NCBI GenBank assembly: GCA_021734905.1
Contig: JAIPIB010000004.1
Span: forward strand, 6,743 to 70,742
Reading direction: 5' to 3'
Length of the DNA: 64,000 nucleotides
Source of the DNA: Minisyncoccota bacterium
GTDB taxonomy: Bacteria; Patescibacteriota; Minisyncoccia; Phycocordibacterales; UBA918
Below the pieces are notes generated by a model that was given only the letters and a program-made list of their open reading frames with translations, did not search any database and was not told the origin of the DNA. Below are positions 3,193-61,553 of the stretch, piece after piece. How positions within the stretch are numbered: the stretch's first letter is position 1; each line of letters starts with the position of its first letter. The translations under genes and the position numbers were made by a program.

Positions 3193-3330
3193 ATGCCAAA
3201 ACGAACATATCAACCAAAGAAAAGAAAGAGAGCAACGACACATGGTTTTTTGGTGCGCTCTGCAACAACTCCTGGGTCTAAGGTACTTCAGGCAAGGAGA
3301 CGTAAAGGACGTGCGAAACTGAGCGTTTAG
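3193..3330 (+). CDS. rpmH: 50S ribosomal protein L34
   Basis: A 45 aa ORF, too short for the ORF track, translates to [45 protein letters not shown]. That is the canonical L34 sequence, and it sits immediately upstream of rnpA. Confidence 0.85.
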
Positions 3331-3345
3331 GGTAAACTTAGAAAG

Positions 3346-3681
3346 ATGCTTCCAAAAAAAGAACGATTGAGTAGAGAAGAATTCAATCGGTTTTTTTTAT
3401 TGGGGAAAAGACACCATACGCCATCTCTTCAAATCGTGTATGTCCCCCACCCAACACTTCAGGTGTCAGTTGTTGTTTCAAAAAAGATTGCAAAATTAGC
3501 CGTTGAAAGAAATAAGATTCGGCGGCGGATTTATGATATTGTTAAGAACTGTCGGCCGGAGAAGAAGCCTCACGGAATTTTTATTTTTATAGTGAAAACA
3601 CCCGTAAGTGCGGTTCCTTATGCGGCTCTACGAGATGAAGTTGTCGCGGGAATAGATGCAGTAGGAAAGAAGTTTACTTAG
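3346..3681 (+). CDS. rnpA: RNase P protein component
   Basis: 111 aa basic protein; it sits between rpmH and yidC, which is the conserved synteny, and contains an RNase P protein-like RR motif (KIRRRIYD). Confidence 0.8.
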   Translation: MLPKKERLSREEFNRFFLLGKRHHTPSLQIVYVPHPTLQVSVVVSKKIAKLAVERNKIRRRIYDIVKNCRPEKKPHGIFIFIVKTPVSAVPYAALRDEVVAGIDAVGKKFT

Positions 3682-3706
3682 ATATAAACGTGAGGAGCAT
3701 ACACAT

Positions 3707-4453
3707 ATGAACTTTATTTGGCATTCATTTTTTTTCGATCCAATTTACAACAGCCTTGTTTTTTTTATAGATATTATTCCCGGAGGTGATGTTGGGATAG
3801 CAATTATTTTTACAGTTATTTTAGTAAAGACAATTATCCTCCCCGTTTCACTAAAAGCAGCGCGGACACAGTTTGCTATGCAAGAACTAGAACCAAAACT
3901 TACAAAGATTAAAGAAGATTTTAAAGATAAGCGTGAACTACAGGCAGTTAAGACCATGGAACTCTTTAAGGAGGCGAAGGTAAATCCTTTCTCAAGTATT
4001 CTCCTTCTCTTTATTCAAATCCCGATTGTCCTTGCTTTATATTTTTCTGTATCTCGTGGTGGAGGAACCCTCCTTCCAGCCATTAATACCGACCTTCTGT
4101 ATTCGTTTATTCCTACACCAGAGACTGTGAATATGATTTTTTTGGGAATTATGGATATAACACAGAAAAGTATGCCACTCGCACTTCTTGCTGGTGTGAC
4201 TCAGTATATTCACACAAAACTTTCTCTCCCGCCGCGAAAAGCACGTGACCCAAAAGCAGAACCAAATTTTAAAGATGATTTTGCGCACAGTATGCAGATG
4301 CAGATGCGATATGTGATGCCCGTTATTATTATTGTTGTTGCATATACAATTTCAGCAGCCATTGCACTTTATTTCACCATAAGTAATCTTATGGCAATCG
4401 CACAGGAATATGTAGTTCGACACAAGGGTCTCAAGTTGCCAATACAAAAATAA
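3707..4453 (+). CDS. yidC: Membrane protein insertase YidC/Oxa1 (short form)
   Basis: The 248 aa protein has about five transmembrane segments. It follows rnpA and has conserved YidC-like hydrophilic loops (KLTKIKEDFKDKRELQ). Confidence 0.8.
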   Translation: MNFIWHSFFFDPIYNSLVFFIDIIPGGDVGIAIIFTVILVKTIILPVSLKAARTQFAMQELEPKLTKIKEDFKDKRELQAVKTMELFKEAKVNPFSSILLLFIQIPIVLALYFSVSRGGGTLLPAINTDLLYSFIPTPETVNMIFLGIMDITQKSMPLALLAGVTQYIHTKLSLPPRKARDPKAEPNFKDDFAHSMQMQMRYVMPVIIIVVAYTISAAIALYFTISNLMAIAQEYVVRHKGLKLPIQK

Positions 4454-4631: not shown

Positions 4632-5792
4632 TTATCGTGCAGACACTTGGGAAGCGTACATCCAAAGTGTGTTGTCGTTTTTATTTATGAAATAGAGGCT
4701 GGTTTCGTCAGAAGAAATACCGATTTTTGAGACATCTATTTCACGACCACTTTCAAGCTCAAAATTACTAATAACAGCACTCTCACCGGCTGTTGTATCA
4801 ATCCCCCAGAGAATATCGCTATAAGAAATTACTCCTTTATACCAACTGTCTGGGTTACTATTAGGAATTTCAAGGTTATACGGAGAAGCGCAGTATAAAA
4901 AGAGCTTGCCGGCCACACACTTTTCAGGGAGGATCGGTATCGAGACTTCTTCAGTCCCACCAACAATGTACGACGTTAAGCTGCCCTCTCCCGAATACGT
5001 GACAATAGGATTATCATGGAACATAAACCCCATCAGGCCTTTTTCTCCTTCTGTAACATACGCAAGCTCATCTTTGTTTATTTTGTAAATATGCCCAACA
5101 ACGCCTGCGGCTGGAGTTGTGTATACATAGATATAGTCTCCCCAAAGTACTCGGACATCCTGTAGGGGTATCGTAAAAAGTCTCGTCGCATTTGATGTTG
5201 AAAGAGTGTAAGAATAACCAGAAGAGCCAGCGTCCTCCAGTAGTCGATAAAAGATAATATTTGGAGTTTTGCCAAAAGAAATATCACGTGCTCCTTTTGG
5301 TAAAAAAGAGCCCTTGAGTGCGGTGTCACCTGAGGTTCCTGTGGGTACTGTACTTACGAGAGTATTCCTGCCCATATTTTCATAAGTACTTATTGCAACA
5401 GAAATACCGTCGAGAGAGAAGACCGCTTCTATTGCCTGTGGAATAGTTGTGGCGCTAATAAGTGACTCTGTTCCTGTGGTGAGATTGATATTGTAAATAT
5501 GTCCTGTGCCTTGTTCTACATAGAGAATTTCGTTTGATGAAGTGAAGGAGGCTCCCGCAACTGGACGAGTGGTGAGTTGACGAAGATTTTGTGGTTTACC
5601 TGCCTCAGTCTGTGGCGAGACATCAACCGTGCCCTGTGGCTGATTCAATGAAGAATTTTGGGTATCGGGGCCACCGGTAAATTTTGTAAAGATGCCACCA
5701 CTTTGAGGTGCCCCATAGATAAAGAAAAATAACCAGATAGCAGTAACGATGATGATGAGTATGCTTCCAATGATAATGTAGATTTTTTTCAT
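4632..5792 (-). CDS. Membrane-anchored extracytoplasmic protein, last gene of the T4SS-like operon
   Basis: The 386 aa product has an N-terminal transmembrane anchor (IIIGSILIIIVTAIWLFFFIY) followed by a beta-rich domain rich in Thr/Ser/Gly. It is co-oriented with the VirB4 cluster and tightly spaced from it. Confidence 0.5.
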   Translation of the reverse strand: MKKIYIIIGSILIIIVTAIWLFFFIYGAPQSGGIFTKFTGGPDTQNSSLNQPQGTVDVSPQTEAGKPQNLRQLTTRPVAGASFTSSNEILYVEQGTGHIYNINLTTGTESLISATTIPQAIEAVFSLDGISVAISTYENMGRNTLVSTVPTGTSGDTALKGSFLPKGARDISFGKTPNIIFYRLLEDAGSSGYSYTLSTSNATRLFTIPLQDVRVLWGDYIYVYTTPAAGVVGHIYKINKDELAYVTEGEKGLMGFMFHDNPIVTYSGEGSLTSYIVGGTEEVSIPILPEKCVAGKLFLYCASPYNLEIPNSNPDSWYKGVISYSDILWGIDTTAGESAVISNFELESGREIDVSKIGISSDETSLYFINKNDNTLWMYASQVSAR

Positions 5793-28992: not shown

Positions 28993-29063
28993 GAATAAAA
29001 TTATACACGATTCCGTAGGCGCATTCTGTTATTGTGCGACACTCCTCATGTACTATATATAGT

Positions 29064-29990
29064 ATGAAACTATCTGAGCTCAAACGAGAATTTCTTGAGT
29101 ACTTAGAAATCGAAAAAGGACGAAGTATTCTTACGATTTCAAATTACGATAGATACTTGGCTCGGTTTTTGACGTATGCAAATACAGAAGATCCCCAAAA
29201 ACTCACGGAGCAGACTGTTAGAGAATATCGTCTCTGGCTTAATAGACAGCCTGGGACAAAAACAGGACGTCAGATTGATACTTTAAAACGAAAAACGCAA
29301 AACTACTACCTCATTGCACTCCGCGCATTCCTTAAGTACCTCCGAAAGCGGAGTATTGAATCACTTAACCCAGAACTTATTGAACTTGCGAAAGTTCCTG
29401 ATAGATCACTTGATCTCATCTCCACACAAGAACTTAACCGACTTATGGATGCGCCTGATGTAAACACTACTCGGGGACTTCGTGACCATGCCATACTCGA
29501 GCTTCTTTTTTCAACAGGGCTTCGTGTTTCTGAATTATGTTCGTTATCACAAGAGGATGTCGATCTTTCGCGAGATGAGTTTTCTGTTCGAGGAAAAGGA
29601 GACAAGGTTCGCGTCGTCTTTCTTTCTGACACAGCACGTAATGCAATCAAAGAATATTTGAAAGTGCGAAAGGACTTTGACGATGCAATGTTTGTTCAGT
29701 ATGGAAAAAATAGTAAAAAAGAGGAAGTGAAAAACAAAGACCTGCGACTTACTCCACGAAGTGTGCAACGTATTATTAAACAGTACGCAACGATTGCTGG
29801 CATTACGCGGAAAGTAACCCCGCATGTTATTCGACACTCTTTCGCCACTGACCTTCTCAGTAATGGCGCTGATATTCGTTCGGTGCAGGCGCTCCTCGGA
29901 CACGCCAATATTGCAACGACGCAAATATACACCCATGTCACTGACAAACACCTCCGCGACATCCACAAGAAATTTCATTCGCGGGGGTAA
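29064..29990 (+). CDS. xerC: Tyrosine recombinase XerC/XerD family
   Basis: Catalytic residues (RHSFATDLL...LGHANIATTQIYTHV) and an N-terminal core-binding domain. The start is taken at the ATG of MKLSELKREF; the ORF track start at 29034 adds 10 aa. Confidence 0.85.
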   Translation: MKLSELKREFLEYLEIEKGRSILTISNYDRYLARFLTYANTEDPQKLTEQTVREYRLWLNRQPGTKTGRQIDTLKRKTQNYYLIALRAFLKYLRKRSIESLNPELIELAKVPDRSLDLISTQELNRLMDAPDVNTTRGLRDHAILELLFSTGLRVSELCSLSQEDVDLSRDEFSVRGKGDKVRVVFLSDTARNAIKEYLKVRKDFDDAMFVQYGKNSKKEEVKNKDLRLTPRSVQRIIKQYATIAGITRKVTPHVIRHSFATDLLSNGADIRSVQALLGHANIATTQIYTHVTDKHLRDIHKKFHSRG

Positions 29991-38317: not shown

Positions 38318-39790
38318 TCAGGTCACCTTGTGCTTCTTGTGTAGTTCCGCCACTGCTTCAGCTTCCTCTTTTTCTTTCTTGTCTTTTCCCTTCTTACCTA
38401 ACACATCAAGTTCTATTTCGGTCATCGCCATGAGTTCAAGCGCCCTTTTCTCTAAGTATTCAGTGGTATTTTTAAGAGGGTCGTCGAGAACTTCCTCAAG
38501 GAGTGCGTTTAGCGTGTCACCAAGTTTTTTACTTGGTTTTTCGTTAGTTATTTCCATAATACGAGAACCATCAATTTTGAGCATCTTTACTGAAATAGGG
38601 TCGCGGAGGGCTTCTTCAACCATCGCTGTATATTTCCTAAGTCGAAATGGCTGCTCTTTTGGTCTCCCTGTTCCTATTCGGTCACATCGGCGAAGCTTTA
38701 GAAGATCCCAGATATTCTCTTGCCCAACATTTGCTATGGTTCTTCGTACAGCAGAAAGTGTTATTTCAGCAGGGTCAGAGAAGAACATGTGCCATCGTAT
38801 AAGTGTGGTGATGCGGTCAATTCTTTCCCGAGGAAATTTAAGTTCTTGCAATGCTTTTTTCGCAACGCGAGCACCAACAACCTCATGTCCATGGAATGTC
38901 CAGTCATTCTTTTCTTTCGACCATCTGCGTGTTTCTGGCTTTGAAATGTCGTGATAAAGCCCTGCAAGGCGAATGTCGAATTCCCAATCTTTGTCAGCAG
39001 CATGCTGCATGGTGCGGAGGAGGTGTTCGTAGACATCAAATGCATGTGCTTGGTTCTGTGCTACTCCAATTCCGCGAAGAAGATCGGGAGCAACATGCGT
39101 GAGAAGCTTGAGTTTTTCAAGAAGGATAATTCCCTGCATTGGCTGTTTCGAATTAAGGATGCGAGTGAATTCATCGCGGATACGCTCCTTTGAAATTCGT
39201 CCGAGGTTATCACTACTTTCTGCGATTGCGGACATCGTATCGCTTTCAATAACGAACCCGAGTTCAACCGCAAGGCGTACCGCTCGCATCATGCGGAGAG
39301 CGTCTTCCTGGAAGCGTTCAGAAGCAGTTCCAACAGCACGAAGACGCTTATGGAGGATATCCTTTTCCCCGTTGAATAGATCAACGATTTTTTCATCTTT
39401 AAGCCGATATGCGATCGCATTTACAGTAAAGTCACGGCGTTTCAGGTCTTCCTCAAGCGATACACCAAAATTAACCGAGTCCGGTCGCCGTGAATCAGAA
39501 TATTCGGATTCAGTACGATACGGTGTTACTTCAACAACCTTAAGTGTTGGATCTTCTGTCTCTGGGTTTACAATACCAACCGTACCATAATCGTTATTAA
39601 GGAATGTCTCAGGAAAAAGACTTTCAATTTCTGTTGGGTGAGCAGTAGTGGTAATGTCCCAGTCCTTGGGGGTTTTACCGATGAGGAGATCACGAACACA
39701 TCCACCAACAAGGTACGCTTCAAAACCTCGGTGTTCGAGGGTGTCAGCAATGTGTTGAACTTCCTTTGGTATCTCGCTTCGCGTGATCAT
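38318..39790 (-). CDS. cca: CCA-adding tRNA nucleotidyltransferase / poly(A) polymerase family with HD domain
   Basis: N-terminal pol-beta nucleotidyltransferase motif (GGCVRDLLIGKTPKDWD), an HD domain (LYHDISK) and a ~90 aa charged C-terminal extension. Confidence 0.85.
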   Translation of the reverse strand: MITRSEIPKEVQHIADTLEHRGFEAYLVGGCVRDLLIGKTPKDWDITTTAHPTEIESLFPETFLNNDYGTVGIVNPETEDPTLKVVEVTPYRTESEYSDSRRPDSVNFGVSLEEDLKRRDFTVNAIAYRLKDEKIVDLFNGEKDILHKRLRAVGTASERFQEDALRMMRAVRLAVELGFVIESDTMSAIAESSDNLGRISKERIRDEFTRILNSKQPMQGIILLEKLKLLTHVAPDLLRGIGVAQNQAHAFDVYEHLLRTMQHAADKDWEFDIRLAGLYHDISKPETRRWSKEKNDWTFHGHEVVGARVAKKALQELKFPRERIDRITTLIRWHMFFSDPAEITLSAVRRTIANVGQENIWDLLKLRRCDRIGTGRPKEQPFRLRKYTAMVEEALRDPISVKMLKIDGSRIMEITNEKPSKKLGDTLNALLEEVLDDPLKNTTEYLEKRALELMAMTEIELDVLGKKGKDKKEKEEAEAVAELHKKHKVT

Positions 39791-39860
39791 AATTATATGA
39801 TTGTAGCAGAAAACCGTTGCAATTTCGCCTTACTAACCGTATGATAGCCAAGTCGCTATC

Positions 39861-39932
39861 GCACCCATAGTGAAATGGATATCATAACTGACTTCGGATC
39901 AGTCGTTGGGGGTTCGAGTCCCTCTGGGTGCA
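39861..39932 (+). tRNA. tRNA-Arg (anticodon TCG)
   Basis: Manual cloverleaf: acceptor GCACCCA/TGGGTGC, D-arm GTGA-AATGGATA-TCAT, anticodon stem ACTGA/TCAGT with loop CTTCGGA, T-arm GGGGG-TTCGAGT-CCCTC, discriminator A. No CCA is encoded. Confidence 0.85.
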
Positions 39933-40064
39933 CAAAATGCCAAGCGCAACACGAAAGTGTTGCGCTTGTTGCGTTTTGGCACTCAGAGGGACTCGAGAAG
40001 GTTGCCAGCTATTTTGTAAAAATAGCGACAACCTGTACTGAAACTGTAAGTTTCGAGTCCCTCC
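39929..40064 (+). repeat. tRNA-linked structured repeat unit, copy 1 (136 bp)
   Basis: Begins in the last 4 nt of tRNA-Arg. It contains a terminator hairpin with a GAAA loop, an antisense copy of the tRNA 3' half (GGCACTCAGAGGGACTCGAG), a nested core (AGGTTG...CAACCT with GCTATTTT/AAAATAGC inside) and a sense copy of the T-arm (TTTCGAGTCCCTCC). It is 135/136 identical to copy 2. Confidence 0.85.
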
Positions 40065-40246
40065 AATAATAGACTTCAAGCTCAGAAGTAAGGTTTTTTA
40101 AGGTATTGGTACACAGAATGTACCAATTACAAGAAATATGGCAATTCCTTACTTCGCTATATAAAAGTATAAGTACAACTATTGTTTAATACAAATTAAT
40201 GTATAAACTTGCATATATAGGAACAATAAGATATAATTGATGCAAT

Positions 40247-41410
40247 ATGATAAGAAAACTTAAGTTCAAAAACTTTTATTCCTTTAAGGAAGAGCAGGTT
40301 CTAGATTTCACTGTTACCAAGAAGAAAAGTGACGAATACTATGAATCTCTTGACGGAACTCAAATAAGCAAAGTGATGGCTTTTGTTGGTCCGAATGCTT
40401 CTGGAAAAACAAGTGTCATGAAGTTGTTTGGGTTTCTGAGCTATTTTCTTACATCAGCTTCCAGAGATATCAAAGATACAAATGACACTGGCTTTAACCA
40501 ATATGCATTTTCAAAACCAGAAACAAGCCTTTTGAGTATAGAATTTGAGACTGCTGAAAATCTATTTACTTATGAATTAGAGTTAGACCCTAAACAGGTA
40601 TACCAAGAAACACTTCATAAGAAGATTTTAAAGAAACGAGCACGACCCCTCTTAGTCTTCCATCGAACAATTGAGGGAGTTGAACTAAATAAAAAAGTTC
40701 TTAAAAATATTCCCAAAAAACAACTTGCGTTGTTGCGAAGTGACATTTCCTTAATTGCTTTTTTAAAAGCTAACTTTGATGTGCCGATAATTAATGAAGT
40801 ATATGAATATTTCAATTTATGGTTTGCAAATAATATAAACGAGTCAGGGTATATTGCTTCCCCAGAAACTAAAATGGACGATGCTGCGCAAAGTTACTTA
40901 AAGATTCCGTCATTGAAAGAAAAAATGGAAGAATTTATTAGAAACTTTGATGTTGGAATTGATAAGTTTCTTATTGAAAAGATAGATAGCAAAATTGTAA
41001 TTAAAGGCTGTCATAAAATTAATGACAAAGAACATAATATTCCTTTCCAGTATGAATCTCGTGGCACAAAAACGTTATTTGTAGATTTACTCCCTATTCT
41101 AGGAGGGTTAGAAATTGGAAATTGCTTAATAATTGATGAAATTGAAACAGGACTTCATCCTCAGGCGGTTGATAAATTAATAAGCTATATCGTAGATCAC
41201 ATAAGAAGATCAAAAAAACAGTTTATTTTTTCCTCTCACTCTTTTAACTTTTTAGAGTTATTCGATGCACCACAAATTTATTTAGTTGAAAAGAATGAAA
41301 ACAAAAGTGAAGTCTTTAGATTAGACTCTCTAGGTGTACGACCAGATGAGAATTTCTACTCTAAATATATGAGTGGTGCTTATGGCGCATTTCCTAAAAT
41401 AAGAGTGTAA
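40247..41410 (+). CDS. AAA_21/ABC-type ATPase, AbiLi/OLD-N-terminal-like (putative abortive-infection ATPase)
   Basis: 387 aa. RecF/SMC-like N-terminus (IRKLKFKNFYSFKEE), Walker A (GPNASGKTS), Walker B (LIIDEIETGLHP) and a signature-like FSSHS motif. Confidence 0.7.
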   Translation: MIRKLKFKNFYSFKEEQVLDFTVTKKKSDEYYESLDGTQISKVMAFVGPNASGKTSVMKLFGFLSYFLTSASRDIKDTNDTGFNQYAFSKPETSLLSIEFETAENLFTYELELDPKQVYQETLHKKILKKRARPLLVFHRTIEGVELNKKVLKNIPKKQLALLRSDISLIAFLKANFDVPIINEVYEYFNLWFANNINESGYIASPETKMDDAAQSYLKIPSLKEKMEEFIRNFDVGIDKFLIEKIDSKIVIKGCHKINDKEHNIPFQYESRGTKTLFVDLLPILGGLEIGNCLIIDEIETGLHPQAVDKLISYIVDHIRRSKKQFIFSSHSFNFLELFDAPQIYLVEKNENKSEVFRLDSLGVRPDENFYSKYMSGAYGAFPKIRV

Positions 41411-41412
41411 AT

Positions 41413-41883
41413 ATGAAAGTTCGCCAAATAAAGAAAATGTGCCTCTTGTTTGGCGAAGGCGGGAAAGAAGAAATCTTCTTTCGGTTCTTAGAAAACAGTA
41501 ACAGGTTCAAGAATCGCTTCCCGGATTGGGGAATAGAAATGTCGCATGCGTCTGGGGAAGCGTGCTCAGTTATACTTCAAAAATGTATAAATTTCACATC
41601 CAAGCGTGGTTTCGATTTGGTAATATGCTTTATTGATACAGATAAACTGCAAGAACATGGAAGTCGAAGTGAAGAAGAAAAGAATCGTTTAGAACAGTTA
41701 GCAACAGAACACAGGATTAAAATAATATGGCAAGATCCTGACCATGAGTCAGAGTTAAGTAGGGCTACAAATGGTCGAATAAAAGGAAAAGCTGGTATGC
41801 GGCGGCGGCTAGAAAATAACCTTCAAGCTATCTCAAAAAGCGCTTTTATCCGTAGGATTTTCGCCTTTTTCCCAAATGAGTAA
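41413..41883 (+). CDS. DUF4276/RloB-like small TOPRIM-like protein (putative AbiLii-like partner)
   Basis: 156 aa. The N-terminal LLFGEGGKEEIFFRFL fits the EGxTE-type motif and ICFIDTD supplies a DxD motif. It starts 2 bp after the ATPase gene stop, suggesting translational coupling. Confidence 0.5.
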   Translation: MKVRQIKKMCLLFGEGGKEEIFFRFLENSNRFKNRFPDWGIEMSHASGEACSVILQKCINFTSKRGFDLVICFIDTDKLQEHGSRSEEEKNRLEQLATEHRIKIIWQDPDHESELSRATNGRIKGKAGMRRRLENNLQAISKSAFIRRIFAFFPNE

Positions 41884-41917
41884 GTCTATACTCTTGTTCC
41901 AACGTCGTCCCATAACC

Positions 41918-42053
41918 TGCACAAAATGCCAAGCGCAACACGAAAGTGTTGCGCTTGTTGCGTTTTGGCACCCAGAGGGACTCGAGAAGGTTGCCAGCTA
42001 TTTTGTAAAAATAGCGACAACCTGTACTGAAACTGTAAGTTTCGAGTCCCTCC
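41918..42053 (+). repeat. tRNA-linked structured repeat unit, copy 2 (136 bp direct repeat of 39929-40064)
   Basis: One mismatch to copy 1 (GGCACCCAGAGGG here versus GGCACTCAGAGGG). This copy has the perfect antisense match to the tRNA-Arg 3' half. Together with copy 1 it brackets the two-gene cargo. Confidence 0.85.
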
Positions 42054-45018: not shown

Positions 45019-45681
45019 ATGATACGCAAATCTGCACAGTATGAACAGGCAAAAGAACTACGAATGCGTGGTTTTACATACGCCGAGGTTGCAAAGATTG
45101 TCGGTGTCGCTAAAAGCACTGTTTCTCTATGGTTTTCACGTGAAACATGGTCTGCGAATGTTGCAGAAGACAACACGAAACGTGCGGCGAAGGAAAATAA
45201 AAAACGTATTACTCTTCTAAACAAAGCCCGAAGTAACCAATTTAGAAAGCTCTATACGGAAGCTGAGCGTTCAGCAACTACAGAATTTAAACATTATAAG
45301 AGCAATCCCCTTTTTATAGCTGGTCTTATGCTTTACTTGAGTAAGGGGGATCATTCAAACAGTCCAGTGATTTGTATTTCAAGCTCACGTAAGGAAATTC
45401 ATCGCTTATTCATTAGGTTTTCAACTGAATTTCTTGGTGTTCAAAAAGAAAAAATGAGATTTTGGTTATTACTTAATTCAAGCCATTCAGCCGAGACATG
45501 TTCACGTTCATGGTCGAAGGAGATAGGTCTTTCCGTGAAACAGTTTCACAAGAATCAGATTACTAAGAACAATAATATAGGTAGTACATTGCATGATGGT
45601 GTTGGAAATACTATAATCGGAGGCACACTCATGAAGAAAAAGCTTCAGAAGTGGGTTGAAACAGCTCTTTTGGAGCTGTAG
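45019..45681 (+). CDS. Hypothetical protein with N-terminal helix-turn-helix
   Basis: 220 aa. HTH-like GFTYAEVAKIVGVAKSTVSLWF. It lies immediately upstream of tRNA-Gly(GCC), in the accessory region. Confidence 0.45.
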   Translation: MIRKSAQYEQAKELRMRGFTYAEVAKIVGVAKSTVSLWFSRETWSANVAEDNTKRAAKENKKRITLLNKARSNQFRKLYTEAERSATTEFKHYKSNPLFIAGLMLYLSKGDHSNSPVICISSSRKEIHRLFIRFSTEFLGVQKEKMRFWLLLNSSHSAETCSRSWSKEIGLSVKQFHKNQITKNNNIGSTLHDGVGNTIIGGTLMKKKLQKWVETALLEL

Positions 45682-45690
45682 ATCACATAT

Positions 45691-45761
45691 GCGGCCATGG
45701 TTAAGTGGTATAACGAGTCCTTGCCAAGGATTAGTCGGGGTTTCGATTACCCCTGGCCGCA
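45691..45761 (+). tRNA. tRNA-Gly (anticodon GCC)
   Basis: Manual cloverleaf: acceptor GCGGCCA/TGGCCGC, anticodon stem AGTCC/GGATT with loop TTGCCAA, T-arm GGGGT-TTCGATT-ACCCC, discriminator A. Confidence 0.85.
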
Positions 45762-46260
45762 CAAAATGCCCCGAAAGGGGTTTTTCTGTGGCCAGGAGAA
45801 AGGTGCCGTGCACCTTTCGTGGTAATCGAAACCGCCGGAACGATGTGAGGTACGAACAAGTGAGGCGTGACCCGTGGCACTTATGAGCGTAGCGAATTAG
45901 TGACCATCAGGTTTCAATTACCCCTGGCCGCACCATTAGATAAGTCGGGCTTTTGCCCGGCTTTTCTAATGGTGGTGGGTAATTGAAAAAGCTTTTAAGT
46001 TAGATTGTGAGGCGTATGCCGAAGCAATCTAGCCAAAAGGTGTACTGAAGCAGTATGCTTTCGATTCTTCTTACAGAAGCTGTCTACTTTGCGGGTGTGG
46101 AACACCTCACAAAGTCTTGCGGAATGATGTTAAATCATTCCTCACCCTGGCCACACCATGTGTAGAATAGGCGGGAGGCTGTGAGACCGCAAAGTGGAGC
46201 TAACAGTGAAATGCCGACTCATAGTACAATTACCCAAGTAACCACCCTTTCCACGGGTGG
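45762..46260 (+). repeat. tRNA-Gly(GCC)-linked repeat region with several sense and antisense copies of the tRNA 3' half
   Basis: Begins CAAAATGCC, as the tRNA-Arg unit does, then a terminator hairpin (CCCCGAAAGGGGTTTTT). Antisense tRNA pieces follow (TGTGGCCAGG, GGTAATCGAAACC, GGGTAATTGAAA). Sense copies are TTTCAATTACCCCTGGCCGCAC near 45915-45937 and CCTGGCCACACCA near 46138. Confidence 0.6.
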
Positions 46261-49352: not shown

Positions 49353-49689
49353 GAATAAGGAACACTGAAACTTACAGTTTCAGTACCCATTCAGGATAAT
49401 CTTCTTCGCTTCACTCGAAAAGATATCTCTGAATAGCTTCAGTTCCATATTGTCGTGGAGTCAGGGATCTTTCATTACATGAACGGTTCAGGTTGTATGA
49501 CCGTTTCTTCTTTTAGTATTTGTCGGGGAGCCGGGTGAGACAGTCCTGGAGGCTGTCGCAAGACCTTGAGCAGTTGTTGCGAAAGGTGTACAGCGTCTGT
49601 AAGACGGAATCCGGACCACTCCTTTCTCCGAAAGCCACAATAATCTCCCAGATTATTGGTTCAATTTGGTGTCTTTGTCCTAGTCTGGG

Positions 49690-49760
49690 TCGGGGAGCCG
49701 GGAATCGAACCCGGACCACTCGGTCCCAAACCGAGTACACTACCACTATGCTACACCCCG
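49690..49760 (-). tRNA. tRNA-Pro (anticodon TGG)
   Basis: Minus-strand cloverleaf with anticodon stem CTCGG/CCGAG and loop TTTGGGA, T-arm CCGGG-TTCGATT-CCCGG and a 3' acceptor CTCCCCG+A. One T:T mismatch in the acceptor stem (position 6:67) and a 3-bp D-stem lower the confidence. Confidence 0.65.
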
Positions 49761-49804
49761 ACCAAGACAGGGACGAGATCTAAGACCAAGACACCAAACT
49801 GAAC

Positions 49805-61303: not shown

Positions 61304-61374
61304 GCGGGTGTAGTTTAGTGGTAAAACGACTGCCTTCCAAGCAGTAGTTGGGGGTTCGATTCCTCTCGCCCGCA
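61304..61374 (+). tRNA. tRNA-Gly (anticodon TCC)
   Basis: Manual cloverleaf: acceptor GCGGGTG/CGCCCGC, anticodon stem ACTGC/GCAGT with loop CTTCCAA, T-arm GGGGG-TTCGATT-CCTCT, discriminator A. Confidence 0.85.
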
Positions 61375-61553
61375 CATTTGAAAGACCGCCTTAGGGCGGT
61401 TTTTCAGTGTGCGGGCGAAGCAACCTGCTGGGAGCAGGTTGCGCGAGGAATCGAAAAGGTTGTCAGATATTTTAGGAACGAAGTAAACTAAAATATCGAC
61501 AACCTGTACTGACCATGTAATGGTCGATTCCTCTCGCCCGCACAAACTGTAAG
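61375..61553 (+). repeat. tRNA-linked structured repeat unit at tRNA-Gly(TCC), same family as the tRNA-Arg units
   Basis: Terminator hairpin (GACCGCC/GGCGGT plus T5). Antisense tRNA 3' half (TGTGCGGGCGA...GAGGAATCGAAA) split by a 9-bp hairpin. Core AGGTTGTC...GACAACCT enclosing GATATTTTA/TAAAATATC. Then GTACTGA and an exact sense copy of the tRNA 3' end (TCGATTCCTCTCGCCCGCACA) at 61533-61553. Confidence 0.8.

Follow-up and report, generated by a model that had tools for sequence, protein, structure and literature searches.

tRNA-tailored structured modules behind tRNA genes of Patescibacteria and a putative AbiL-type defence cassette between two of them

What are two nearly identical, folded units doing immediately behind a tRNA gene, on either side of two genes of deviant composition? 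This question was raised by a tRNA-Arg(TCG) locus in a 64,000-nt stretch of contig JAIPIB010000004.1 (assembly GCA_021734905.1) from a Minisyncoccota bacterium, hereafter called the window. Patescibacteria (the Candidate Phyla Radiation, CPR), to which it belongs, account for a large share of bacterial diversity and have tiny genomes. To our knowledge, recognised mobile elements and integrases are few among them, and the way in which they acquire defence and accessory genes is poorly understood. The analysis revealed that the units belong to a large family of modules whose structure is under selection and that modules are dispensable, replaceable and variable at the strain level. The two genes appear to form a cassette of a separate kind, inserted between two such modules.

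The tRNA-Arg gene carries A73 at 39932 and C74 at 39933, and CCA is not encoded. Behind it, a direct repeat of 136 nt was located at 39929-40064 (U1) and 41918-42053 (U2) with a spacing of 1989 nt. The two copies were identical at 135 of the 136 positions; the sole mismatch was T39983 in U1 against C41972 in U2, and the C of U2 restores perfect complementarity to the tRNA. A preliminary description, made from the letters alone, had reported the same identity and spacing together with an overlap of the unit with the tRNA; the overlap does exist, but it consists of 5 nt (TGCAC, the last 5 nt of the tRNA as called by ARAGORN) and not of 4. The features of the repeat pair were as follows.

39861-39933 (ARAGORN) or 39861-39932 (Rfam), forward strand: tRNA-Arg(TCG), 63.9 bits with Rfam
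39929-40064, forward strand: unit U1, a family-1 T-loop module of 136 nt found as a direct repeat, with a covariance-model match at 39988-40064 (97 bits)
39941-39968, either strand: GAAA-loop hairpin of 12 bp, terminator-like on both strands
39974-39997, forward strand: segment A, antisense of the tRNA T-loop, the T-stem 3' strand, the acceptor 3' strand and the first trailer bases
39999-40034, forward strand: P2 hairpin with an 8-bp lower stem AGGTTGCC/GACAACCT, an 8-bp upper stem and a GTA triloop
40035-40041, forward strand: junction GTACTGA, invariant in the pattern-selected set of units and nearly so in variants
40042-40052, forward strand: P3 mini-hairpin AACT-GTA-AGTT
40053-40064, forward strand: segment S', a sense tRNA copy from T-loop position 55, consisting of TCGAGTCCCTC (40053-40063) and a C
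41918-42053, forward strand: unit U2, the second module copy of the direct repeat, with a covariance-model match at 41977-42053 (97 bits); hairpin 41930-41957, segment A 41963-41986, P2 41988-42023, GTACTGA 42024-42030, P3 42031-42041, S' 42042-42053

Every sub-feature that had been listed beforehand (hairpin, antisense copy, nested core, conserved string and sense copy) could thus be located in the unit. The GAAA-loop hairpin forms the apex of a long palindrome in which the tRNA 3' end and trailer (39914-39936) pair with segment A. The antisense copy of the tRNA 3' part in U1 spans 39974-39996 (23 nt) and is 87-91% complementary; the last 9-10 nt of segment A pair with segment S as helix P1, and across the family the P1 positions covary with the local tRNA. 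P2 of U1 contains a conserved C.A mismatch in its lower stem and a bulged A at 40007, and it is followed by GTACTGA and AACTGTAAGTT at 40035-40052. The sense copy is shortened to 12 nt at this locus, whereas elsewhere in the family it is usually an exact copy of 21-22 nt. The 136-nt unit folded to -69.6 kcal/mol as RNA, with a z score of -10.1 against shuffled sequences (-10.2 when folded as DNA), and no chance match of the core pattern was expected in the window. The view of the unit as a folded, target-tailored element and not a plain attL/attR repeat was upheld.

The pattern AAGGTTGYC-N15-45-GRCAACCTGTACTGA was scanned against one genome per species (GTDB). Other tRNA genes, which the preliminary description had named as the place to look, do carry the core: the exact pattern occurred in 113 genome stretches, nearly all of them labelled as Patescibacteria or unclassified bacterium. 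The labels of the metagenome-assembled genomes included Paceibacteria, Kaiserbacteria, Nomurabacteria, Minisyncoccia and bins labelled 'Saccharibacteria'. Among about 126 motif copies, 84 lay 42-107 nt 3' of a tRNA on the same strand, and these tRNAs covered 29 anticodon species and 17 amino-acid types. A few matches were found in bins labelled Patiriisocius or Acidimicrobiales, and one exact match (L069, 5451-5504) lay on a contig labelled Vicinamibacterales with neither a tRNA nor a sense copy nearby; these matches may represent bin contamination or chance.

The modules shared a canonical architecture. Between the end of the tRNA and that of the sense copy they measured 116-196 nt, with a median of 153, and were always co-oriented with the tRNA, placed after the terminator and without a promoter of their own. 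The tRNA 3' end (S1) is followed by the trailer and terminator hairpin and by segment A, which itself consists of inverted trailer and acceptor-3' antisense, a variable hairpin (often ..CTGGGAG..) and T-stem-3'/T-loop antisense (..GGGACTCGAA). P2, GTACTGA, P3 (NNNN-GTA-NNNN) and the sense tRNA copy from T-loop position 55 (S2) complete the module. In most units S2 was an exact copy of 20-24 nt, starting at TCGA of the T loop, 9-11 nt past the core. The core forms a three-way junction of P2 with its C.A mismatch and bulged base, GTACTGA and the NNNN-GTA-NNNN mini-hairpin. Segment A reads as acceptor 5' strand, hairpin and T-stem 5' strand; the extra hairpin, which is often present, takes the place of the D and anticodon arms. 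The module is, in effect, a miniature tRNA gene copy that holds the core at T-loop position 54/55. This is directly visible in a mirror-image arrangement in L032 (reverse complement, 5030-5342), L008 and L019: tRNA nt 1-54 are present as a copy, then come a hairpin, a family-1 core and a degenerate 3' part, and an intact tRNA follows after 25-60 nt. The copy of nt 1-54 was exact in L032 and L008, and diverged with a D-loop insertion in L019.

A covariance model detected 153 family-1 copies in 704 kb of fetched loci and five copies in the window, spread over its tRNA loci, all four of which carry a module. The remaining modules of the window were as follows.

61304-61545: tRNA-Gly(TCC) (61304-61375) with a complete family-1 module, core at 61446-61535 (86 bits), comprising a terminator, an antisense copy of the tRNA-Gly 3' end interrupted by a hairpin with a CTGGGAG loop, the core and an exact sense copy of 20 nt
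45691-46071: tRNA-Gly(GCC) with a family-2 module, in which a different core of about 80 nt is present; sense copy near 45914-45936
45979-46071: diverged family-1 module, the second behind tRNA-Gly(GCC) (38 bits), whose lower stem covaries (AGCTTTTA/CAAAAGGT)
49357-49761, reverse strand: tRNA-Pro(TGG) with a module of another type, sense copy about 147 nt downstream
49357-49447, reverse strand: diverged family-1 module, the second behind tRNA-Pro (34.5 bits), whose outer stem is unlike tRNA-Pro

At other tRNAs, among them tRNA-Gly(GCC) of the window, the place of the family-1 core is taken by that of a second family, which measures about 100 nt (GACGGA..GAGTCCGGG..ACTTAG..TTAGTGA..GTGACC). Altogether, a sense copy and/or the motif was found behind 128 of the 194 tRNAs with enough downstream sequence, in a sample biased by the choice of loci for having the motif. 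Modules occurred singly, in tandem or flanking cargo, and most were without cargo. Some units were perfect palindromes of about 70 nt centred on the terminator loop, as in L024. With the covariance models of Rfam 15, only tRNAs passed the gathering threshold, and the matches at a permissive threshold were microRNA-hairpin noise. Viral contigs scanned with the core, its right half and the cassette motif yielded no matches, a search of phage genomes with the whole locus returned only a chance tRNA match, and no description of these modules was found in a literature search. Among the fetched loci, no open reading frame (ORF) was present inside the P2 loop, as would mark autonomous copies. Nor did a common protein family emerge from the module loci, where the top clusters, judged by eye, appeared to be housekeeping genes such as those of an IF-2-like GTPase and of an FtsE-like ABC ATPase.

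The structure was assessed on an alignment of 79 distinct units with 77 gap-free columns, from which the apical loop had been trimmed. In the named structure 91.1% of the cells were paired, compared to 79.2% in shuffled alignments, and 270 cells with double changes were counted against 82. The covariation score of 0.339 (0.119 when shuffled) was reached by none of 500 shuffles, and controls with slid partners scored 0.05-0.08; the fold proposed from the single locus thereby gained the support of its relatives. In the 4-bp stem of P3, 305 of 320 pairs were Watson-Crick although at least 12 different stem sequences occurred, and the loop was GTA in 82 of 84 units. P1 (A:S) tracks the local tRNA at those T-loop positions that vary: at one of these, 69 of 84 pairs were Watson-Crick with four pair types, compared to 26% when partners were swapped between tRNAs. 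Across the family, P2 showed the 8-bp lower stem with its conserved C.A mismatch, the bulged A or T and a covarying 8-bp upper stem. The structure of the module is therefore under selection.

The loops were mostly GNA triloops (GTA, GAA, GCA; also GCGAAGC), and GNA triloops form stable DNA mini-hairpins. The counts of G.T against A.C pairs revealed no consistent strand bias, the signals of P1, upper P2 and lower P2 being in conflict, and the minus strand gave the more stable P2 in 61 units, compared to 16; strand assignments from pair counts and from folding energies were thus contradictory between helices. The GNA triloops, the lack of a steady strand bias and the promoterless position after a terminator hint at single-stranded DNA.

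Between U1 and U2 lies a segment with a GC content of 0.31-0.35, compared to 0.42-0.48 in its flanks. The following features were assigned to it.

40065-41917, forward strand: cargo cassette of 1,853 bp, with a terminator-like hairpin at its left end, two genes and a conserved right-end motif
40247-41410, forward strand: AbiLi-like AAA_21/AAA_15 ATPase of 387 aa (PADLOC AbiLi, E 1e-63; Pfam AAA_21, E 1.9e-26)
41413-41883, forward strand: partner protein of 156 aa, weakly RloB/AbiLii-like (Pfam RloB, E 8.1e-5, below cut-off; PADLOC AbiLii, E 0.0022)
41896-41915, forward strand: cassette right-end motif GTTCCAACGTCGTCCCATAA of 20 nt, followed by CC and then by TGCAC

The preliminary description had regarded this segment as a foreign, cassette-like insertion without an integrase, and its low GC content, the AbiLi match and the absence of a recombinase among its genes agree with that view. 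Its naming of the genes held for the AbiL-like ATPase, while the DUF4276 likeness given to the second gene was listed in neither the Pfam nor the PADLOC scan. The cargo is thus a putative AbiL-type defence cassette of foreign composition. AbiL (AbiLi/AbiLii) is related to PARIS AriA and to OLD/RloB-type pairs, and the cargo likewise combines an AAA_21/AAA_15 ATPase with a small partner gene; it differs in that the partner matches AbiLii (E 0.002) and RloB (E 8e-5) only weakly, and the defence role is a putative one. The two units had also been taken as the ends of this cargo, and here the interpretation had to be changed: the modules are generic, located behind most tRNAs of the lineage, usually free of cargo and often in tandem. 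The cargo has an end signature of its own. After 182 bp of non-coding sequence and the two genes, it closes with a motif (GTTCYAACGTCGTCCCATAA) common to unrelated cassettes at other tRNAs. The window junctions read ...TCGAGTCCCTCC|AATAATAG on the left and ...CCCATAACC|TGCAC on the right, and the distal module end reads ...CCCTCC|TGCCAC.

Besides L119, a metagenome scan located the 20-nt motif in five more stretches. In L119 and L125-L129 it closes unrelated cassettes and is separated by 2 nt from a sequence resembling the tail of a tRNA 3' end (TGCAC, CCCAC or GGAGAGCAC). A terminator-like hairpin precedes it in L125, L126, L128 and L129. In L126 (4801-7100), and also in L125, at least two small cassettes succeed each other behind tRNA-Asn without family-1 cores, each cassette of L126 ending in TTTCAAGAATCYATTTCTGTCCGCAAGAAA, GTTCCAACGTCGTCCCATAA and the tRNA-tail-like GGAGAGC. 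The cassettes with this motif encode an AAA_15 system, an ABC-F-like ATPase and small proteins without a family match, and a Fic gene is adjacent in L127. A homolog of the AbiLi protein (P0002, 79% identical) was found on four short contigs (L119-L122); its gene pair ends in the motif variant GCTCGAACATATGTTGAATAA-CC-CGCAC and is followed by an S-terminator-A palindrome. The sequence 3' of this pair in L119 and L120 differs from that in L121. A comparison of L119 with L121 (both at 1960-2060) revealed a second, unrelated cassette (AAA_15 and a 230-aa protein) in L119 that is absent from L121. It lies in convergent orientation in the A arm of the palindrome, its junction falls again just before (T)GCAC, and its end, GTTCTAACGTCGTCCCATAA-GG-TGCAC, has the same 20-mer as the cargo of the window. 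From these shared ends, the cargo appears to be a separate kind of cassette with its own end motif, inserted between two generic modules. By simple tests, no tRNA or module was detected in the contexts of the AbiLi homologs. Cargo also stands beside modules in L080, in the order tRNA-Ala, module, exact S, genes for D-Ala-D-Ala ligase and a C39 peptidase, degenerate S, module. A reading of the junctions as products of a serine recombinase with the 2-bp crossover 'CC' fits the window and fails for L119/L121. In L135 the cassette motif has an inverted match of 10 nt, probably due to chance.

Syntenic relatives were collected through homologs of the neighbouring CCA-adding enzyme (80-89% identity). 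The AbiL cassette was missing from all syntenic relatives examined, a comparison that the preliminary description had put forward, and the interval from tRNA-Arg to tRNA-Gly ranged from 0.4 kb without genes in L130 to 5.8 kb in the window. Family-2 modules stand behind tRNA-Arg in these relatives in place of family 1. In L130 (6020-6442), a tRNA-Gly(GCC) identical to that of the window is followed by a terminator alone and by no module, which represents a natural empty site. The combinations of module families at tRNA-Gly(GCC), with one or two modules, differ between L133 and the window. L135 and L136 (tRNA-Gly region, about 3300-4010) encode an identical CCA protein, yet they differ by one whole module; segment A of L136 is a chimera of the two A segments of L135, and the contigs also differ by a deletion between TTCTCC repeats. 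Given the empty site of L130, the family swaps and the L135/L136 difference, the modules are dispensable, replaceable and variable at the strain level. Tandem arrays had periods of 111-155 nt with 69-99% identity between copies, three of them identical in L055; without its cargo, the pair in the window would have a period of 1989 - 1853 = 136 nt.

Two Logan contigs (L002 and L004, SRR12088351) end exactly 30 nt inside the 136-nt repeat, as in a k-mer (de Bruijn-graph) collapse, and many homologs of AbiLi and of a 220-aa helix-turn-helix (HTH) protein encoded in the window lie on contigs of 1-2.5 kb. Exact-protein look-ups for strain variants yielded nothing beyond the source genome and such short Logan contigs. 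It seems that assemblies are systematically interrupted by these repeats at tRNA loci. On the other side of tRNA-Arg, the CCA-adding enzyme gene (38318-39790, reverse strand) stands head-to-head with this tRNA gene, which does not encode CCA. CCA was present at the called 3' end in few of the 84 module-side tRNAs, for example L071 tRNA-Met, L079, L103 and L109 tRNA-Arg. A consensus scan marked one further site there, a pattern match only.

39817-39845, forward strand: promoter-like site TTGCAA-17-TATGAT, 5' of tRNA-Arg

How this arrangement arose can be pictured as follows. At tRNA-Arg, a tandem pair of modules would have been split by a defence cassette, and both modules and cassettes would move by site-specific recombination with an enzyme acting in trans; we put the chances of this account at about even. 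The starting state would be the tandem pair with a period of 136 nt, and the S site that separates the two modules would then have received the cassette (...CCCTCC|cassette...CCCATAACC|TGCAC). The junctions, together with the distal module end ...CCCTCC|TGCCAC, fit a prior tandem pair whose middle S (CCCTCC-TGCAC) took the cassette. An equivalent route would be a Campbell-type crossover of a circle carrying the cassette and one module. Modules and cassettes would recombine at sites that mimic the 3' end of a tRNA gene, the enzyme being encoded elsewhere. A circular single strand [S - trailer - terminator - (cargo) - A - core] may fold, A pairing with S into a duplex replica of the 3' part of the tRNA gene, with the core as its cap. 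The folded strand would exchange one strand with the tRNA gene at the T loop, and replication would resolve the intermediate into tRNA - terminator - A - core - S2, which is the order observed. Such a one-strand exchange would explain the antisense copy, the fixed left boundary of S2 and the abundance of GNA triloops, and the tRNA would be restored by the element's own S copy and receive a new terminator. An exchange of this kind would follow the logic of the CTX-phage attP(+), with recognition of structure as in attC, and single-strand hairpin recombination is an attractive inference. A wider proposal, which we hold tentatively and as rather doubtful, is that Patescibacteria carry a self-templated platform for hairpin recombination behind most of their tRNAs, at which defence and accessory cassettes without a recombinase, recognisable by the 20-nt end motif, are captured, stacked and exchanged by an enzyme encoded elsewhere. 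Each site would hold the 3' part of its own tRNA in both orientations around the three-way-junction core. Such a platform would be an integron analogue spread over the tRNA genes, with target specificity located in the site and not in the protein, and its enzyme would possibly be the lone Xer or an HTH protein with a LAGLIDADG-like domain.

These two proteins are the candidates, both unproven, that the window offers for the enzyme. Its sole tyrosine recombinase is, as had been noted beforehand, a Xer-like gene, now placed at 29034-29990, 10 kb away; the protein scores near the XerD, XerC and archaeal XerA models and lies above the NCBIfam cut-off for XerA. The second candidate has a confident AlphaFold model (predicted local distance difference test, pLDDT, of 89).

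45019-45681: HTH and LAGLIDADG-like protein of 220 aa, member of a family of 385 homologs

Its family has a transposase/resolvase-type N-terminal HTH and an invariant helix motif FxAG..Y...GD, and its genes lie 7-46 nt 5' of a same-strand tRNA in the window, L133 (twice), L135/L136, L011 and L078. The protein may be a nuclease, a recombination factor or a regulator.

Several observations weigh against movement by site-specific recombination. A phmmer screen with the Xer protein of the window and a gamma-delta resolvase sequence as queries revealed no tyrosine or serine recombinase in 846 ORFs near modules, a screen that would miss HUH, DDE and distant enzymes. The same screen found none at the cassette loci, where none of the neighbouring genes was a recombinase, and no integrase was present in more than 120 loci, over 800 kb in total, around modules and cassettes. 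For the cassette of the window, no recombinase, circle, junction read or precise empty site was seen, and the nearest relatives, about 89% identical in the flanking enzyme, have a different module family at tRNA-Arg. The attL and attR of the cassette share only 'CC', and no classical overlap of 6-8 bp is visible. It is also difficult to imagine a mobile circle as small as about 140 nt. The search pattern had fixed the lower P2 stem and GTACTGA, and the invariance of both in that set is therefore circular; copies found independently, through the sense copy or the covariance model, included the variants AAGCTTTTG..CAAAAGGT, GCCCGATTG..CAATTGGG, GTACAGA and GTACCGA. Covariation cannot tell RNA from single-stranded DNA, and the high conservation of the core in deep lineages, like its occurrence behind most tRNAs, is also compatible with a function for the host.

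Such a function is the substance of one alternative, in which the modules are structured non-coding RNA genes, each for a tRNA-like minihelix RNA paired to its tRNA, with a role in tRNA biology such as that of a decoy, chaperone or processing signal. The RNA would be a product of tRNA read-through or of precursor processing; the tandems would have arisen by unequal crossing-over, and an unrelated event would have placed the cassette between two copies. The strong covariation in three helices, the conserved single-stranded GUACUGA, an A:S helix that mirrors the acceptor and T stems of the cognate tRNA, the constant co-orientation and presence at 128 of the 194 sampled tRNAs, and a core kept across deep lineages are all compatible with an RNA, and a strand-specific transcript could account for the greater stability of P2 on the minus strand (61 units against 16). 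However, no Rfam family matches, the modules follow an intrinsic terminator without a promoter of their own, and the strand-bias signals of P1, upper P2 and lower P2 conflict, with GNA loops instead of GNRA or UNCG. The identical tRNA-Gly(GCC) of L130 does without a module, which is hence dispensable, and the core families differ at orthologous tRNAs of relatives. An exact S2 beginning at one T-loop position and array changes at the strain level are the signature of DNA recombination, and we regard the RNA explanation as unlikely. Recombination need not involve a dedicated enzyme, and the modules might be selfish or neutral palindromic repeats produced by template switching at hairpins and spread by RecA recombination or slippage between short repeats derived from the tRNA, with the cassette acquired by homologous (Campbell-type) recombination through a shared module. 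The order S1-hairpin-A-hairpin-S2 is indeed a direct-inverted-direct triplication with its junctions at two hairpins, perfect palindromes of about 70 nt occur (L024), and the L135/L136 differences correspond to recombination at repeated hairpins plus the TTCTCC-repeat deletion. An identity over 136 bp is sufficient for RecA, and no recombinase was found in the screened ORFs. This leaves unexplained why a conserved core of 24 or more nt with covarying helices recurs at hundreds of hairpins, 29 tRNA species and distant lineages, why a second conserved core family holds the same position, and why one cassette-end motif is joined to different tRNA tails; an enzyme-free origin is also judged improbable.

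Crossover in the T loop is an established pattern among elements that integrate into tRNA genes, and tandem accretion at att sites is known. The repeats could accordingly be ordinary attL/attR remnants of a tRNA-integrated island from which the integrase gene has been deleted, the structure being incidental P-arm sequence. The direct repeats do hold the 3' segment of the tRNA from the T loop, the tRNA is restored, and the cargo combines a deviant GC content with defence-type genes. We nevertheless consider this very unlikely: the more than 120 loci and 800 kb contain no integrase, most modules are free of cargo, and the 136-nt repeat overlaps the tRNA by just 5 nt. The antisense copy and the covarying core remain without an explanation, and viral contigs gave no matches. 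A further origin would involve homing, the HTH and LAGLIDADG-like protein acting as an endonuclease that cuts copies of tRNA genes at or near the T loop or 3' end, with modules as products of double-strand-break repair or, in the manner of an intron, as mobile insertions that interrupt the site. The conserved family of the protein (about 220 aa, 385 homologs) has the HTH N-terminus and the invariant FxAG..Y...GD helix motif, its genes lie 7-46 nt upstream of a same-strand tRNA in several loci, and an insertion at the position of the core, the midpoint of the A|S palindrome, would abolish a symmetric site. Yet the canonical catalytic acidic position of LAGLIDADG is not conserved, for which reason the protein may be a WhiA-like DNA binder, and of the 113 pattern-scan loci only 3 contained homologs, in addition to the syntenic relatives L133 and L135; there is little likelihood of such an origin.

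Whatever their mode of spread, the locus suggests a general route by which tRNA-tailored modules multiply, get lost and bracket variable cassettes, making tRNA genes hot spots of gene capture. As recombination sites, the modules would represent a new encoding of target specificity, in which the site carries a folded copy of its target, and they would offer natural, programmable landing pads whose compact enzyme has yet to be discovered. As RNAs, they would form a new and abundant class of tRNA-paired RNA. In either case a family with at least two core types and hundreds of copies is missing from Rfam and the searched literature, and it breaks short-read assemblies at tRNA loci and confuses annotation.

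A comparison with known systems places the modules close to several of them. They resemble integron attC sites, which are imperfect palindromes of about 60-140 nt recognised by fold over sequence, with a conserved bulged base and mismatch, and the integron as a whole in its arrays of cassettes without a recombinase of their own; folded single-strand recombination is established for attC and may apply to the modules. The preliminary description had been reminded of attC, but the units do not belong there. The defining R''/R' boxes (RYYYAAC/GTTRRRY) are replaced by AAGGTTGYC/GRCAACCT, GTACTGA and NNNN-GTA-NNNN, and IntI, attI and the cassette promoter Pc are absent (ORFs of the 113 loci; the window has only the Xer-type recombinase). 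In contrast to attC, the outer stem of a module is copied from the adjoining tRNA, the sites are at tRNA genes and most are cassette-free, and the cassette of the window differs from integron cassettes by its two genes, the 182 bp of non-coding 5' sequence and a different conserved end motif. The attP(+) of CTX phages, which are integrative mobile elements exploiting Xer (IMEX), likewise consists of two inverted target copies, tens of nt apart, that can fold as single-stranded DNA into a duplex mimic of the target; its integrated form has sense - spacer - antisense at one end, and its enzyme is encoded by the host. The modules differ in that their target is the T loop/3' end of a tRNA and not dif, the site of XerC/XerD recombination, and in that they lack a phage genome and measure about 150 bp or carry small cassettes. 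With tRNA-integrating islands and integrase-less elements mobilisable in cis they share direct repeats starting at the T loop (S2 being 20-24 nt long, 12 nt here), a tRNA that stays intact and is given a new 3' end and terminator by the element, accretion in tandem and defence cargo of low GC content. They are, however, miniature, without an integrase found nearby, and contain an antisense target copy and a covarying three-way junction by the crossover point.

Repetitive extragenic palindromes (REP) and REPINs, mobilised by a single-copy RAYT transposase, are also small multi-copy hairpins with a short single-stranded motif beside the hairpin and no enzyme in the element, but the sequence of a REPIN is fixed, not built from the target and not tied to tRNA genes. 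Tandem inversion duplications share the threefold presence of a segment, here from T loop to terminator, in direct - inverted - direct order with junctions at two hairpins; in the modules, one junction always holds the same conserved foreign core, and it recurs at hundreds of loci. Ends of miniature inverted-repeat transposable elements or insertion sequences were rejected: fixed terminal inverted repeats and a short target-site duplication would be expected of them, whereas the inverted segments of the modules derive from the local tRNA and change from one tRNA to the next, and about 21 nt of the tRNA are duplicated. In TIGR and bridge RNAs, unpaired guide segments lie in internal loops, accompanied by box C/D-like motifs and an adjacent protein with DEDD/Nop domains (PMC12045711). 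The modules were compared with TIGR and IS110 bridge RNAs by this published layout and appear not to fit, as their target-derived segments pair with each other and are not open loops. Hammerhead and box C/D structures, which CUGA and GAAA had brought to mind, were likewise rejected by the strand order of the junction. The modules thus fail the defining tests of attC, CTX attP, tRNA islands, REPINs and inversion duplications despite their likeness to each; modules and cassettes are classed as a variant of tRNA-targeted integrative sites and cassettes, and there is a real chance that they are categorically new.

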